A stretch of DNA of 64,000 nt. Origin: Deltaproteobacteria bacterium (GTDB lineage Bacteria; Desulfobacterota; GWC2-55-46; DRQE01). A model generated the notes under the pieces. That model was given only the letters and a program-made list of their open reading frames with translations. It was not told where the DNA came from and did no database searches. A program made the position numbers and the translations under genes. Location of the stretch: assembly GCA_015492495.1 (NCBI GenBank), contig WGEY01000088.1:2959-66958 (forward strand), written 5' to 3'. This document shows, piece by piece, positions 14,624-19,638 of this stretch; the first letter of the stretch is position 1, and each line of letters starts with the position of its first letter.

Positions 14624-15655
14624 TCAGAACCACAGGAGGAACTGATCTGCGGGAAGGCTTCTTTGAAGGAGAGAGGTGAGGGGACGCGAAAGGTTCAGAA
14701 GGGATGTGGCGGCCTTGCCGGTTCGTCCGAGGTGCCTGCCGAGTATCCCGGTCAGGTCGGAGAGTGCATCGAGTATCCAGGAGACAGGCTGGTTACGCTC
14801 GGTCCGGCCGAGCCCTCGGGCAAGGCCCCTTGCCTTGGTTATTCTTTTCTCGGCCATCCCAAGGGCCGAGCCGATATCCGTGCCGCTCATGATTATGTGG
14901 TTTTTCCCGGAGCGTTTGCGGTCGTACTCGAGGTCCATGGCGTCGTCTATCAGCTGGCCGGCCTCGCCAGTGAGCCTTCCTATCTCGGCGTACCGCTGCC
15001 TTACGTCACAGCCGGCGCTTGCCGTGGGAAAGAGCACGCCTATGACCCTGTCTCCGCAGGACTTCCTGTATAGGTATGTTTGGGGATCGGTCGCCTCCTC
15101 GCTCGATATGAGTGTCTTAATGACATCGAAGAGGCGGCTCCTTATGGCGCGCAGCTCTTCGAGGTTTATCTCACCGCGGCGAACCTCCTCGGCCAGGGCC
15201 ATGTCCATGAGGTCCCTGTACGCATGGGAGATATACAGGAGCCTTTCACCGAACCTGTCGTAGCTGGCCTCCTTGTCCAAGAGGTCATCCATACACGCGA
15301 CCATGGATGAGAAGAAGCCTGCGGCCACCTGCAGCTCACCCCTCGATCCGAGGATATCGGCCATCACGCCGATGCAGACCTCGGTGAGGGCGCCGCCGTC
15401 GGCGTTTAGTGGATAATCTCCGATCATGCCGCGGGTATAGGCGAGCTCTACCGCTGGCCTTATGACTGGACCTGCGAGGTCGAGTTCACTCCTCATGATG
15501 TGGGATGCAACGGGGTCCGTCTCTCGGAGGTAGGGGGGTGTCCTTGGCTTTGCGGATATGGAGAGGTAGTCGCGTATTATCAGGCCACGCCGGAGCGAGG
15601 ACCTATTCCTTAGCCTTCTTATGGAAGCCGGTGGTATGGTATTCGACGGCGCCAT
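14624..15655 (-). CDS. hypothetical protein, possible class-I isoprenoid synthase-like fold (two Asp-rich DDxxD-like motifs)
   Basis: 343 aa. ...VACMDDLLDKE... and ...QLIDDAMDLEYD... lie about 120 aa apart, the spacing seen between the first and second Asp-rich motifs of trans-isoprenyl diphosphate / terpene synthases. Otherwise divergent. Confidence 0.4.
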   Translation of the reverse strand: MAPSNTIPPASIRRLRNRSSLRRGLIIRDYLSISAKPRTPPYLRETDPVASHIMRSELDLAGPVIRPAVELAYTRGMIGDYPLNADGGALTEVCIGVMADILGSRGELQVAAGFFSSMVACMDDLLDKEASYDRFGERLLYISHAYRDLMDMALAEEVRRGEINLEELRAIRSRLFDVIKTLISSEEATDPQTYLYRKSCGDRVIGVLFPTASAGCDVRQRYAEIGRLTGEAGQLIDDAMDLEYDRKRSGKNHIIMSGTDIGSALGMAEKRITKARGLARGLGRTERNQPVSWILDALSDLTGILGRHLGRTGKAATSLLNLSRPLTSLLQRSLPADQFLLWF

Positions 15656-15898: not shown

Positions 15899-17125
15899 CT
15901 ATGTCTCATCGATGTTTCTTGCACCTGTAGGCCTCCAGGAGGGGGATATGACGCCTGTTTCACCTCTGCTTTCAAGGATGGTCCCCCAGGTAAGAGTAAA
16001 CTCGCCGAAGCTTTCGTTGACCGTATCCATGGCCCGAAGGAGATCGGTCCGTCTCCTGTCCTCTTCAAAGAGACTTTCCTGGCAGAGGTGCCTTGCAAGT
16101 ACGTCCATGGCTATACCTATGAGCCTTACGGCCTTTTTGAGCTCTATGGAGTCCATTATCCTCAGTGCATGGAGGTATACCGCGCGGGTGTCGTTTGTTG
16201 GGCAGGGGAGAGGCCGGCTCCTTGTGAAGGTATGGAAGTCGCTGTATCTGACGGTGAGTATGAGCCTTGTTCCGGCAAGGCCGTGCTTTCTTGCCCTGCT
16301 GCATACCTTCTCGGAGAGCCTTAGGAGGTACGCCTTAAGGGTTTTCGTATCAGAGGTGTTACGGGGCAGTGTGATGGAGTGTCCCACGCTCCTTGTCCGC
16401 TCCTGTTCTTCCACGCTTGCAACCGGGCTCGTATCTATCCCCTGTGCCATGAGCTTGAGCCTCTCTCCGGTCATGCCGAAGCTGCTTTTCAGTATGCCCG
16501 CCGGACAGTCCGCAAGCTGACCGCAGGTCCTGATGCCCATTGCGTTCAGGCGTCCCGCGAGCTTTCGTCCTATGCCGCAGAGGCGCTCGACGGGCAGCCT
16601 TTCCAATACACTTCGCACCTCTCCTTCCTCTATGAGCACCAGGCCGTCGGGCTTTTGCATGGACGAGGCGAGCTTGGCCATGAGCTTGTTAGGGCCTATA
16701 CCAACGGATGAGCCGAGCCCGGTCTCTTCCCTTATCCTCTTTTTTATGGAGAGCGCTATGGTCCGTGGCGTGCCGAAGAGGGAGGTCGAGCCTGTAACAT
16801 CGATGAACGCCTCGTCTATGGAGAATGGTTCGATCTTGGGGCTGAAGCCCTCAAGTATGGCCAGTATGCGCCTAGAGGTGTCGGTGTAGATGCGGTTGTT
16901 GGCCTTTACGAAGACGACCTGCGGACAGAGCCTTCTTGCCTCGTATATGTTCATCCCCGTCCTGACCCCGTACCGCCGGGCATGGTACGAGGCGGTCGTT
17001 ATAACGGTCCTGTGGCCCCGGCCTATAACGGCCACCGGCCTCGAGCGGAGCGCCGGGTTGCGCCTCTGTTCTATCGATGCGAAGAAGGCGTCCATGTCTA
17101 TGTGGAGTATGGTGCGTGCGGCCAT
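15899..17125 (-). CDS. dinB: DNA polymerase IV (Y-family translesion polymerase)
   Basis: ORF 15899-17185 trimmed to the ATG at 17125 (MAARTILHIDMDAFFASIEQRRNPALRSRPVAV...), which has a GGAGG RBS. Classic DinB N-terminus and SIDEAFIDVTG motif. Confidence 0.85.
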   Translation of the reverse strand: MAARTILHIDMDAFFASIEQRRNPALRSRPVAVIGRGHRTVITTASYHARRYGVRTGMNIYEARRLCPQVVFVKANNRIYTDTSRRILAILEGFSPKIEPFSIDEAFIDVTGSTSLFGTPRTIALSIKKRIREETGLGSSVGIGPNKLMAKLASSMQKPDGLVLIEEGEVRSVLERLPVERLCGIGRKLAGRLNAMGIRTCGQLADCPAGILKSSFGMTGERLKLMAQGIDTSPVASVEEQERTRSVGHSITLPRNTSDTKTLKAYLLRLSEKVCSRARKHGLAGTRLILTVRYSDFHTFTRSRPLPCPTNDTRAVYLHALRIMDSIELKKAVRLIGIAMDVLARHLCQESLFEEDRRRTDLLRAMDTVNESFGEFTLTWGTILESRGETGVISPSWRPTGARNIDET

Positions 17126-17126
17126 G

Positions 17127-17420
17127 CTACGCCTCCACCTGCTCGAGCCTCCACACCATGGTGTAGGGGTTGTAGGATAGCTCAAAGAGTGTTGTCCCGT
17201 CGGTCACCGAGAAGTGGACTATGCTCGTGTGTCCGTGCCGCGTGCGCCACGTGTAGGTTATCTCCTTCACGGGATATACCCTGCCGTTCCACCTGAACTT
17301 CACGGGCCTTACCCCATTGTCGAAGACGGCGATGACCTTTATGGGTTCCTGAAGATGCATGGCGAGCGAATGAAATCTCCTTGAACGTGCATTGCGAGCG
17401 CCTGTCTGCGTGTGGTTCAC
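17127..17420 (-). CDS. small conserved-looking hypothetical protein translationally coupled to dinB
   Basis: Stop TAG at 17127-17129 sits 1 nt before the dinB ATG, and its last codons (GTGGAGGCGTAG) form the dinB RBS. The listed GTG start is 17420; the alternative ATG at 17360 (MHLQEPIKVIAVFDNGVRPVKFRWNGRVYPVKEITYTWRT...) is more likely, giving about 77 aa. Confidence 0.4.
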   Translation of the reverse strand: MNHTQTGARNARSRRFHSLAMHLQEPIKVIAVFDNGVRPVKFRWNGRVYPVKEITYTWRTRHGHTSIVHFSVTDGTTLFELSYNPYTMVWRLEQVEA

Positions 17421-17433
17421 CCTAACAGGCAGG
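17401..17433. repeat. inverted-repeat element CCTGTCTG-(17 nt)-CAGGCAGG
   Basis: Arms CCTGTCTG / CAGGCAGG. The same arms recur 100 bp away with a 3-nt loop. Confidence 0.5.
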
Positions 17434-17502
17434 CATTTCCCGAAGCCCGCTACGGGTTAGCGAGCGAAATACAATCGGATAATTCCTTACATGAGAAGAT
17501 TC

Positions 17503-17521
17503 CCTGTCTGCTACAGGCAGG
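17503..17521. repeat. inverted-repeat element CCTGTCTG-CTA-CAGGCAGG (second copy)
   Basis: Same arms, including the same T/C asymmetry, as 17401-17433. Lies between lexA and the small-ORF/dinB unit. Confidence 0.5.
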
Positions 17522-17570
17522 CCTTAGCCCACTCGATGGAGCTTCAATTTGAAGGTCTTTTGCAGTGCAT

Positions 17571-18200
17571 CTATTTATTACTGGACCGTCCGTCCATGTG
17601 TTTTATTACCGATACGACCTTGCCTATGATTGAGAACTCCCCGGCCTCCAGTCTGATGGGCTCCATCTGCGGGTTTTCGGGCTTCAGTACGACAGCCCTA
17701 CCCGTCCTGAAGAACCTCTTTACAGTGGCATCGCCGTCCACCATGGCAACGACTATTTCGCCGTTGGATGCGTCGGCCTGCGGCCTTACTAGGACGTAAT
17801 CGCCGTCCTCGATGCCCGCATCCACCATGCTTTGGCCCTCGACCCTCAACATAAACGCCCCCCTGCACTTGAAAAAGTCCGGATCAAGGGTGACGTAGCC
17901 GGTGATGTCCTCTACGGCCGGATGGGGCTTGCCGGCCCTGACCCTGCCGGCTATCGGCACCTGTACGGCCCCGGTGCGTGACAATATGTCTATGGCCCTT
18001 GAACGGTTCGCGCTCCTCCTTATGAAGCCCTTTTTTTCAAGGGCCTCGAGGTGCTTTCTCGCGTTCTGGGGGCCTTTGATGCCGAACCTTACGCATATTT
18101 CCCTCAAGGAGGGGGCATAGCCGTGCTCGGAGATGAACTCCCTTATGAACTCCAGAACCCCTTTCTGCCTGTGGGTGAGCCTTCTTTCATCCATGAACAT
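17571..18200 (-). CDS. lexA: LexA repressor (SOS regulator, S24 peptidase)
   Basis: 209 aa. N-terminal wHTH (LTHRQKGVLEFIREFISEHGYAPSLREI), Ala-Gly cleavage region (VPIAGRVRAGKP), and C-terminal S24 domain with Ser (VEGQSMVDAGI) and Lys (TVKRF). Confidence 0.9.
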   Translation of the reverse strand: MFMDERRLTHRQKGVLEFIREFISEHGYAPSLREICVRFGIKGPQNARKHLEALEKKGFIRRSANRSRAIDILSRTGAVQVPIAGRVRAGKPHPAVEDITGYVTLDPDFFKCRGAFMLRVEGQSMVDAGIEDGDYVLVRPQADASNGEIVVAMVDGDATVKRFFRTGRAVVLKPENPQMEPIRLEAGEFSIIGKVVSVIKHMDGRSSNK

Positions 18201-18299
18201 GCATGCTGGCGCCCGCCTGGGCGGGAACGCTCGCAGTCAGGCGATTCGTCAGCCAAGCGTGCATTCCCCGCCTTTAGGCAGAGTATTGTGTTATCTTTT

Positions 18300-18317
18300 G
18301 GGTAACTTTTGTTATCC
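18300..18317. promoter_or_regulatory. candidate LexA operator: near-palindrome GGGTAAC-TTTT-GTTATCC (core TAAC-N4-GTTA)
   Basis: About 100 bp upstream of the lexA start. Shares the AAC-N4-GTT core architecture of many LexA boxes. Flanked by a further GTTATC half-site at 18290-18295. Confidence 0.3.
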
Positions 18318-18464
18318 TATAGTAAGGCGAAACCTCCTGGATGTCAAGGTGTAAATGCGGTATCTGTAGGGAATGTTCGGATTTGTTCCCATTGGGCCAA
18401 CGGCTGCCTGGGCACGTGGATACCCCGAAGGCACGAAACGTTTTCCGCTGGTTCTGTTTTTTTA

Positions 18465-18708: not shown

Positions 18709-19638
18709 ATGGCGGGAGTTTCGCATCTGTGGGAGCCCGATTCAGGGCTTCTCAGGGATATAGAGTCAATGGCCCGAGATTACAGGCGCAGGGCCGAGGA
18801 GCATCTCAAGCCCATTGTATCCTCATACTATCCGGCGCTTCTCGATGGCGGCGGGGAATACCGCAAGATGATAGAGCTCTCCACCAAGATGACAATGGTA
18901 GGCCATGCATGCACGGAGATAGGCGGATACCGCTTCGACGAGAGGAGGCGGAGGATGAGCGCGCTCTTCGGTGCGTGCTGCTTCATCGGCGACAGCTTCA
19001 TAGATGACTTCGGTGATGATGCGGCAAGGGAGTACATCGAGCGCTACGAGCTCTTGCTGACCAGGGGCTGGTTCGATATAAGGAACGACCGCGAAAGGCT
19101 GTTCTTCGTCATCCTCACAAGGCTCTTCGGGGAGCGTGACGTGCTTGACCCTATGCTTAGACAGGCGATATTCTCGCTCTTCCTCGCCCAGAAGAGGGAC
19201 GTTGATCTGAGGCTTGATCCCGGGTGGCTGAAAGTGCTCAGGCGCAGGTCAAGGCTCGATCAACTCAGGGTGTGCGCGCGTGACAGGAGCGGGCATGCCA
19301 TCACGGTGCTTTCGCTTTTCCTGGTTCCGGGCTTTCCGCTCAGGTACCACCACCTGCTGTACACGGCCGGTGCGCTCATAATGTACATAGACGACCACGG
19401 CGACTGTTACTCGGACCTGTACCACAACAGGGTCACCTACATGAACCAGGTGAAAAACCCTTCGGTCACCCTTCTCAGGGCCTTTGCCAGGGGCACCGAG
19501 CGCCTGAGAAAGGGGCTTCCCGAGGGCAGGGGACGGGAGATACTCCTGGCGTTCCTGTACAGGTACTTCATCACCAGGATCGAAAAGCACCGGCTGGAGA
19601 GGGACCGGGGAAGGTACTCTTGGACAGTGTATGAGTAG
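18709..19638 (+). CDS. hypothetical protein, possible isoprenoid-synthase-like fold (Asp-rich motifs IDDFGDD and IDDHGD)
   Basis: 309 aa. ...CFIGDSFIDDFGDDAAREY... and ...LIMYIDDHGDCYSD... lie about 135 aa apart. Architecture resembles ORF 14624-15655 but the sequences are divergent. Confidence 0.4.
   Translation: MAGVSHLWEPDSGLLRDIESMARDYRRRAEEHLKPIVSSYYPALLDGGGEYRKMIELSTKMTMVGHACTEIGGYRFDERRRRMSALFGACCFIGDSFIDDFGDDAAREYIERYELLLTRGWFDIRNDRERLFFVILTRLFGERDVLDPMLRQAIFSLFLAQKRDVDLRLDPGWLKVLRRRSRLDQLRVCARDRSGHAITVLSLFLVPGFPLRYHHLLYTAGALIMYIDDHGDCYSDLYHNRVTYMNQVKNPSVTLLRAFARGTERLRKGLPEGRGREILLAFLYRYFITRIEKHRLERDRGRYSWTVYE

Follow-up and report, generated by a model that had tools for sequence, protein, structure and literature searches.

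A predicted LexA-controlled lexA–imuB-C–polY operon of the Geobacter type in an uncultured deltaproteobacterial lineage

The family of stand-alone ImuB-C proteins, which are predicted to assist error-prone DNA polymerases as a subunit, was described in 2013, with GSU0042 of Geobacter sulfurreducens as its prototype (Aravind, PMC3765255). Their genes have been found next to those for DinB, DnaE2, UmuC/YolD, Ku/ligase, SplB photolyase and SRAP (PMC3765255). The G. sulfurreducens operon lexA1-GSU0042-GSU0043 is co-transcribed and induced by DNA damage according to Jara 2003, as cited in PMC6511836, and an AlphaFold-Multimer model of its PolY-ImuBC-RecA complex was published in 2026 (pLDDT 90.4, pTM 0.85, ipTM 0.83; PMC12926913 supplement). 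For Geobacter, the LexA box is given as GGTT-N10-AACC (PMC8565304).

Here, we analyzed a window of 64,000 nucleotides (contig WGEY01000088.1 of assembly GCA_015492495.1) with a locus of the same composition. A first-pass annotation had read it as an SOS module of lexA, a small ORF and dinB with tight translational coupling, had set the small protein apart from UmuD, YolD and ImuA, and had proposed it as a possible new partner of Pol IV. The module, its coupling, the separation from those three families and the conservation of the small gene all hold up: the three genes lie on the minus strand, and their order is kept in complete loci of relatives. The idea of a new Pol IV partner is not supported, because the small protein is by sequence an ortholog of GSU0042 and belongs to a family known since 2013, with the complex modeled in 2026. 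We conclude that the small gene is real and conserved, and that the locus adds one more, unremarkable case to a known type of DNA-damage operon. The features are listed in Table 1.

Table 1. Features of the lexA–imuB-C–dinB locus, in positions of the window
Feature	Position	Strand	Description
Predicted sigma-70-type operon promoter, TTGACA-17-TACTAT	18319..18347	minus	consensus scan, 10/12 matches
Candidate LexA operator GGATAACAAAAGTTACCC	18300..18317		palindrome directly downstream of the -10 hexamer
lexA	18200..17571	minus	209 aa
lexA to imuB-C spacer	17361..17570	minus	210 nt, unusually long for this operon type
Small ORF (imuB-C)	17360..17127	minus	77 aa, all-beta, stand-alone ImuB-C / DUF6504 by sequence
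Shine-Dalgarno GGAGG for dinB	17132..17136	minus	within the last imuB-C codons (V-E-A)
dinB / polY	17125..15899	minus	408 aa, Y-family polymerase, GeoPolY-like type
Putative beta-clamp-binding motif QESLF, aa 349-353	16067..16081	minus	Q..LF nearly invariant in 31 orthologs
UmuC-like C-terminal extension, RecA-NT-like part of DUF4113, aa 357-384	15974..16057	minus	profile matches
Extreme C-terminal tail GVISPxWRPxGV+xV, aa 391-408	15902..15955	minus	nearly invariant

The stop-to-stop frame of the small ORF spans 17420..17127. Translation from a GTG would give 97 aa, and from the ATG at 17360 it would give 77 aa; homologs and public gene calls favor the 77-aa form. Its TAG (17129..17127) is followed by the single base 17126 and then by the dinB ATG (17125..17123), so that the minus strand reads ...GGTGGAGGCGTAG C ATG and the stop lies 1 nt from the dinB start, as had been noted. 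The ribosome-binding sequence of dinB was likewise correctly placed in the last codons of the small ORF, with GGAGG 6 nt from the ATG. The mechanical ORF of dinB begins at a TTG (17185), but conservation points to the ATG at 17125 as the start. imuB-C itself has a Shine-Dalgarno sequence (AAGGAG) 16 nt upstream of its start, which is a poor spacing. A scan of this locus revealed neither a terminator nor a second operator inside the operon. The long spacer between lexA and imuB-C contains no LexA box, Rfam match or same-strand terminator, and its predicted fold is not significant (z-score -1.4); in most relatives, the two genes are separated by roughly 10-270 nt, in many cases by <100 nt.

The lexA-imuB-C-polY order is constant in every complete locus examined, Brocadiales and Elusimicrobiota included, across several phyla, and the arrangement is conserved far beyond chance. 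The small gene is conserved next to dinB, so that the refuting condition given with the first-pass annotation, a lack of this conservation in relatives, does not apply. In most loci of relatives, imuB-C and polY are joined by ATGA overlaps or separated by gaps of 1-14 nt. This tight coupling is not universal, because in four distant loci unrelated genes lie between imuB-C and polY, with imuB-C still beside or near lexA.

The identity of the small protein rests on its similarity to GSU0042 (AAR33377), with 45% identity over 78 aa in BLASTP (E=2e-23). It is 38% identical to the ImuB-C protein of Calditerrivibrio (E=1e-14), and tblastn matched a plasmid copy of ImuB-C in Geobacter anodireducens (E=1e-10). 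On these sequence grounds, we assign it to the stand-alone ImuB-C proteins (Pfam DUF6504). The match of the protein itself to DUF6504 (PF20114) has 20.7-21 bits (E=4-5e-4), short of the gathering threshold of 24.2. Among the close homologs, several have PF20114 as a precomputed match, and 82 of 124 diverse family members match the model at E<=0.01. The 38 close homologs are 56-97% identical, their alignment has 16 invariant columns, and the family comprises 874 representative clusters. The AF2 model, made as had been suggested and for the small ORF alone, is all-beta with seven strands (pLDDT 94.3). The protein is a globular domain of ~80 residues without a catalytic motif; within the family, the C-terminal Trp (W70) is invariant and the basic residues K21 and R27 are nearly so. 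Both the invariant W70 and the all-beta structure agree with how ImuB-C has been described (PMC3765255).

A profile of the family aligned with the ImuB-C protein of D. deserti (Deide_1p01890; hhalign 91.6%, E=8e-7), which is annotated as a "DUF6504 family protein" and scores above the DUF6504 threshold (30 bits). Similarity to the fused domain is fainter: with the C terminus of A. fabrum ImuB, hhalign gave an in-register alignment at E=1.9e-4 with a probability of only 48%, A. fabrum ImuB matched DUF6504 at E=0.004, and Burkholderia ImuB gave no signal. The published ImuB-C/ImuB searches were similarly modest, with e-values of 1e-4 to 1e-5 (PMC3765255). The ImuB sequences for these comparisons were obtained through DnaE2 neighbors; tblastn of ImuB-C proteins against plasmids recovered no ImuB, and the matches listed in a broader-profile protein search were all stand-alone proteins, with no ImuB among them.

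The families of UmuD, YolD (YqjX) and ImuA were rejected as candidates, given the seven-stranded all-beta model of 77 aa and the lack of any Pfam or NCBIfam match to them even at E<=1. A likeness to archaeal family-B polymerases was dismissed as well, the PDB sequence matches being at chance level only (E=0.011). We found no literature under the name DUF6504, and the connection came through the name ImuB-C. For the ImuB-C family, the literature in effect already contains the co-occurrence analysis and multimer modeling that had been proposed for the small ORF. In public records, the small protein and many of its relatives are labeled "hypothetical" or are unannotated.

The polymerase contains IMS (PF00817, 2.5e-53), IMS_C (PF11799, 3.8e-26) and HhH families of Pfam and matches the NCBIfam models of DNA polymerase IV. 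It reaches 139 bits against the NCBIfam UmuC model, for which the cut-off is 431, and it groups with DinB/PolY-core and not with UmuC. Along its entire length, including the ISPxWRPxG tail, it aligns with the GeoPolY-like protein of Calditerrivibrio (ADR18604; 36% identity, E=5e-86). The catalytic motifs DMDAFFA and SIDEA are intact in this protein and in nearly all orthologs, and from the intact carboxylates the enzyme is predicted to be catalytically competent. Clamp-binding pentapeptides follow the consensus QL[SD]LF, with which QESLF agrees. The region behind this motif matches DUF4113 at E=0.044-0.059, below threshold, and 20 of 20 ortholog tails match the same model (best E=3.5e-5). A profile of the polymerase tails aligned with the C terminus of E. 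coli UmuC (hhalign 89.9%, E=1.7e-6), and the direct match to the RecA N terminus is weak (E=0.046). At the extreme C terminus, I393, S394, P395, W397, P399 and G401 do not vary among 20 ortholog tails, in which V392 and R398 are nearly invariant. G391 to G401 are invariant in a set of 10 orthologs, and almost all of the 31 orthologs show the motif, as does the GeoPolY of Calditerrivibrio. We infer that this GVISPxWRPxGV tail may serve as a docking site.

LexA combines a winged-helix DNA-binding domain (LexA_DNA_bind, PF01726, 2.7e-23) with an S24 autopeptidase domain (Peptidase_S24, PF00717, 4.5e-35) and exceeds the cut-off of NCBIfam TIGR00498 (227.8 bits versus 110.95, E=1e-67). The residues for self-cleavage can be read in the sequence, namely an Ala-Gly site within RAGKP and a Ser/Lys dyad in GQSM and TVKRF, respectively. 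In related loci, the equivalent position upstream of lexA has a TTGACA and, after it, a TATAAT-like hexamer. The candidate operator has the family consensus GGGTAAC-N4-GTTACCC. In ~27 loci, the palindrome (<=3 mismatches) is located upstream of lexA at a distance of 0-100 nt and adjoins or overlaps the -10 hexamer; no second copy of comparable quality (<=2 mismatches) was found elsewhere in these loci. Its size class is that of the Geobacter LexA box (PMC8565304), but the motif is different. The range outlined by the first-pass annotation ends at 18317, which is the end of this 18-bp palindrome.

From the combined analysis, we propose that this is probably a LexA-autoregulated lexA-imuB-C-polY operon of the GeoPolY-like type known from Geobacter, in which ImuB-C acts within the polymerase complex. 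LexA would bind the palindrome that overlaps the single operon promoter, and upon DNA damage, RecA-stimulated self-cleavage of LexA would derepress the entire transcript. This would lead to joint production of the 77-aa ImuB-C and the Y-family polymerase, with translation of the polymerase coupled to termination of imuB-C. By means of the QESLF clamp motif, the polymerase could gain access to the replication fork, and it would probably contact RecA through its UmuC-like RecA-NT motif, so that the outcome would be a Pol V-like translesion complex of PolY, ImuB-C and RecA. The most likely role of ImuB-C in such a complex is that of a LexA-controlled, noncatalytic accessory subunit of the polymerase.

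The role of a subunit has to be weighed against other functions for the small protein. Aravind et al. 2013 originally proposed a DNA-binding or damage-sensing role for ImuB-C (PMC3765255), and here the protein might mainly recognize lesions or stalled structures and recruit the repair enzyme encoded next to it, without being a stable subunit. The several different repair partners beside stand-alone ImuB-C genes (PMC3765255), the conserved basic residues K21 and R27 and the loci in which unrelated genes part imuB-C from polY while imuB-C stays by or near lexA would all agree with such a sensor, which we consider unlikely as an account of this locus. [quoted passage not shown] We regard this adaptor as a quite improbable idea; if true, it would be a role not previously described for any bacterium.

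It is very improbable that the small protein is some other SOS effector that only happens to be encoded in the operon, such as one that restrains the polymerase or LexA/RecA, or a division inhibitor like SulA, YneA or SidA. Genes for small SOS-induced inhibitors do often adjoin lexA (lexA-sulA in Pseudomonas, yneA by lexA in Bacillus), ImuA, the neighbor in the related cassette, is a reported RecA modulator, and the function of ImuB-C has so far been predicted. However, the protein shares homology with a domain that occurs as a fusion to the polymerase-like ImuB and is required in the mutasome architecture, it is all-beta and soluble without a Pfam or NCBIfam match to SulA or YneA-type families, and a Y-family polymerase accompanies it in every complete locus. 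The ORF could even be thought of as a chance open frame in the leader between lexA and dinB that only provides a ribosome-binding site, given its shortness, the poor spacing of its own Shine-Dalgarno sequence and the "hypothetical" or missing annotation in public records. This explanation has practically no chance of being right and is refuted by the conservation of the protein, as seen in the homologs, invariant columns and clusters counted above; the confident AF2 model and the fixed synteny across phyla likewise stand against it.

The locus carries little weight as a discovery, as the literature already covers its gene family, this type of operon and the predicted complex. Its practical value lies in annotation, where proteins now called "hypothetical" can be named ImuB-C/DUF6504. 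Stand-alone ImuB-C accompanies mutagenic polymerases in many phyla, and the wider family is worth experiments, for which the conserved variant of the operator and the invariant tail of the polymerase offer concrete handles.

Among known systems, the ImuA-ImuB-DnaE2 mutasome (Caulobacter, Mycobacterium, Pseudomonas and plasmids of Agrobacterium/Burkholderia) is likewise an SOS-linked translesion cassette and shares the ImuB-C domain and a RecA-NT-like motif after the Y-family fold. In the mutasome, however, the ImuB-C domain is joined to a Y-family protein that is catalytically dead, and DnaE2, partnered by ImuA, serves as the active polymerase, whereas the operon in the window has a separate ImuB-C and a polymerase that keeps its catalytic residues, and contains neither imuA nor dnaE2; similarity between the two ImuB-C forms is marginal. 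[quoted passage not shown] With the UmuD/YolD-UmuC-type systems, the common logic is a LexA-controlled Y-family polymerase with a DUF4113/RecA-NT extension and a small all-beta accessory protein encoded immediately upstream. UmuD is an S24 autopeptidase and YolD is SH3-like, while ImuB-C is neither, being unrelated and, according to the literature, a different beta-barrel; the polymerase of the window groups with DinB/PolY-core instead of the UmuC type.

The closest counterpart is lexA1-GSU0042-GSU0043 (PolY-ImuBC-RecA) of G. sulfurreducens. The window differs from it in the 210-nt spacer between lexA and imuB-C, in its host, an uncultured hydrothermal-vent lineage, and in the operator, which is reported as GGTT-N10-AACC for Geobacter and has the candidate GGGTAAC-N4-GTTACCC here. 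Both have the identical three genes in the identical order with ImuB-C proteins that are 45% identical, an 18-bp palindrome at the lexA promoter, and a polymerase with the same clamp motif, RecA-NT-like extension and ISPAWRPxG tail, and both belong to the same taxonomic neighborhood, the Thermodesulfobacteriota (former delta-proteobacteria).

The lexA, imuB-C and polymerase genes follow one another on the minus strand (table). The identities of LexA (TIGR00498 in NCBIfam, 228 bits) and of the polymerase (Pfam IMS, 2.5e-53; IMS_C, 3.8e-26; NCBIfam DNA polymerase IV models) are unambiguous as judged from these domain matches. The first-pass annotation had described a single base between the stop of the small ORF and the polymerase ATG, with the ribosome-binding site inside the last ORF codons, and the sequence bears out both. 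It had also staked its proposal on the small ORF being conserved beside dinB in relatives, which the 28-locus scan and the homolog look-ups described below clearly demonstrate. Among the genes flanking the operon (18709-21032, plus; 14624-15655, minus), no Pfam family was matched at E<=0.01, with one exception, a weak polyprenyl-synthase match (E = 0.0026) in a 343-aa protein downstream of dinB. DDxxD-like motifs (LIDDAMD, FIDDFGDD) are present in this protein and in a 309-aa divergent neighbour.

Features of the lexA-imuB-C-polymerase operon in the window and insertions in related loci
Feature	Position	Strand	Details
Sigma-70-type promoter	18347..18319		TTGACA-17-TACTAT
Palindrome	18300..18317		GGATAACAAAAGTTACCC; directly downstream of promoter
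lexA	18200..17571	minus	209 aa
lexA-imuB-C spacer	17361-17570	minus	210 nt
imuB-C (small ORF)	start ATG 17360, stop TAG 17129..17127	minus	77 aa, conserved form
GGAGG	17136..17132	minus	within last small-ORF codons, 6 nt ahead of polymerase ATG
Polymerase gene	ATG 17125, end 15899	minus	408 aa, Y-family
Polymerase segment RRRTDLLRAMDTVNESFGEFTLTWG			after QESLF; DUF4113 match
Polymerase C-terminal tail GVISPxWRPxGV+xV	15902-15955	minus	aa 391-408, nearly invariant
Unrelated genes inserted within operon, relative locus L033	4480-5692
Unrelated genes inserted within operon, relative locus L036	2801-3874, 4303-5145
Unrelated genes inserted within operon, relative locus L037	4333-5127

We conclude that the small ORF encodes a genuine, conserved protein. 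Word-indexed searching yielded 38 homologs (77-99 aa, 56-97% identity, 16 invariant columns), and an exhaustive search with a profile, covering 1.84 billion cluster representatives, yielded 874 families at E<=1e-3, 264 of them at E<=1e-10; the best 150 of the 874 matches were all short stand-alone proteins. AlphaFold2, run on the alignment, confidently predicted a seven-stranded all-beta domain (pLDDT 94.3, pTM 0.83). That the ORF is non-coding is much less likely. A 97-aa form starting at an upstream GTG was supported by none of the homologs and by no public gene call.

The protein is a previously unannotated ortholog of the known ImuB-C family. It is 45% identical to GSU0042 of Geobacter sulfurreducens over 78 residues (E=2e-23) and 38% identical to the Calditerrivibrio ImuB-C. 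Its own match to Pfam DUF6504 is sub-threshold (20.7 bits, cut-off 24.2), the domain is found in the precomputed annotation of several close homologs, and a direct scan matched it in 82 of 124 diverse family members. W70 is invariant across the 124 sequences. The ImuB-C domain was defined in 2013 by Aravind and colleagues from small GSU0042-type proteins, as a predicted all-beta domain of ~80 residues with a conserved C-terminal tryptophan and basic residues, whose gene usually adjoins DinB and often LexA too (PMC3765255). The Deinococcus deserti protein called ImuB-C (PMC8072749), which PGAP names "DUF6504 family protein" and which lies within lexA-imuY-imuB-C-dnaE2, scores above the DUF6504 threshold and matches the family profile with 91.6% probability (E=8e-7). 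Bona fide ImuB sequences came from plasmids of Agrobacterium and Burkholderia, where imuB is part of imuA-imuB-dnaE2 cassettes. The Agrobacterium ImuB C-terminus aligned in register with the family (E=1.9e-4), weakly, at a probability of only 48%, and matched DUF6504 below threshold; Burkholderia ImuB gave no signal against the family. This marginal link is at the level reported in the original ImuB-C paper (PMC3765255). The only matches of the family profile to PDB sequences were weak (archaeal family-B DNA polymerases, residues 280-333, E=0.011-0.38; a few to anthrax toxin receptor 1, E~0.2); they are most likely due to chance and found no support in the fold search. The window ortholog comes from an uncultured hydrothermal-vent Thermodesulfobacteriota-like lineage.

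The gene order is widely retained. In all five homolog look-ups, lexA was followed on the same strand by the small gene and then by an IMS/IMS_C polymerase gene; three of these loci lie in clearly different genomic surroundings. Scanning GTDB species representatives gave 28 loci, and tblastn with the LexA, ImuB-C and polymerase sequences of the window recovered all three genes in this order wherever the locus was long enough; more distant Brocadiales (Planctomycetota) and Elusimicrobiota members share the arrangement. In most loci, the small gene and the polymerase are joined by an ATGA stop/start overlap or separated by 1-14 nt, and four distant loci (Thermodesulfovibrionales, Nitrospirota, a Clostridia MAG) have unrelated genes between the two. 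The inserted genes are read from their sequences as acyltransferase-like, PDDEXK/DUF1016-like, Bro/KilA-like and others. The module also occurs on the 110-kb Geobacter anodireducens plasmid pSD (CP014964.1, locus L040, 3380-5200). The plasmid table lists no CDS for its dinB part, which tblastn matched in more than one piece and which may therefore be a pseudogene. On plasmid pPRO1 of Pelobacter propionicus there is an unannotated imuB-C-like ORF with no adjoining polymerase.

We propose GGGTAAC-N4-GTTACCC as a plausible candidate for a clade-specific LexA operator. It lies 0-100 nt upstream of lexA in ~27 loci, and no second comparable copy (<=2 mismatches) was found elsewhere in these, including before imuB-C and polY; in the 64-kb window, the 16-nt core GGTAAC-N4-GTTACC occurs once at one mismatch. 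In length, the window palindrome is comparable to the LexA box published for Geobacter, GGTT-N10-AACC (PMC8565304). The Thermodesulfovibrionales and Nitrospirota loci (L033, L035, L037) lack GGGTAAC-N4-GTTACCC upstream of lexA and have TATACATTTGTATA-type palindromes at the promoter instead, ~100-150 nt before the lexA start, which suggests that the LexA box has diverged in these lineages. The lexA-imuB-C spacer is 210 nt long, against roughly 10-270 nt, often <100 nt, in most relatives; neither a terminator nor an Rfam match was found in it, and its predicted folding is not significant (z-score = -1.4). It carries a GCCTGCCTGT...CAGACAGG inverted-repeat motif twice, the regions 17400-17434 and ~17500-17525 (minus) being the most notable, and might represent a small repeat element that was inserted.

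The catalytic motifs DMDAFFA and SIDEA are intact in the window polymerase. Past the little-finger domain, Q..LF is nearly invariant among orthologs; the window version, QESLF (aa 349-353), fits the beta-clamp-binding consensus and is a putative clamp motif. The following RRRTDLLRAMDTVNESFGEFTLTWG segment matched DUF4113, the UmuC C-terminal family, in all 20 orthologs tested (best E=3.5e-5, window E=0.044), and a tail profile including it matched the E. coli UmuC C-terminus (89.9%, E=1.7e-6). In the literature, this region is termed the RecA-NT-like motif; aligned directly with a RecA N-terminus, the region was in register and non-significant (E=0.046). The extreme C-terminal tail, GVISPxWRPxGV+xV, is better conserved than this segment, being almost invariant clade-wide and also present in the Calditerrivibrio and Geobacter GeoPolY. 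We consider it a candidate docking site.

In the best-supported mechanism, of which the sequence-level parts were observed here, lexA, imuB-C and the polymerase gene would form a single LexA-autoregulated transcript. ImuB-C and the active Y-family polymerase, as translationally coupled products, would assemble into a Pol V-like complex that probably includes RecA, bound via the RecA-NT-like motif, and would be brought to the clamp. Complex formation is predicted from published AlphaFold models and by analogy with ImuB. The principal alternative, put forward when the family was first described (PMC3765255), has ImuB-C sensing or binding damaged DNA and recruiting a range of repair enzymes. A brake-like or division-inhibitor-like role for ImuB-C is much less likely.

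The first-pass annotation was right that the small protein is not of the UmuD, YolD or ImuA type (no such Pfam or NCBIfam match). Of its suggestion of a new Pol IV partner, the partnership probably holds; the novelty does not, since the ImuB-C family and the operon type were already described in 2013, 2019 and 2026. The polymerases were named "GeoPolY-like" (PMC6511836), and the window enzyme shares 36% identity over its full length with a Calditerrivibrio polymerase named as a member of this group. Damage induction and co-transcription have been reported for the Geobacter operon (Jara 2003, as cited in PMC6511836). The 2026 survey lists "PolY-ImuBC-RecA" among 11 association modules with AlphaFold models (PMC12926913), and its supplement gives the sequences for the G. 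sulfurreducens PolY-ImuBC-RecA model (pLDDT 90.4, pTM 0.85, ipTM 0.83).
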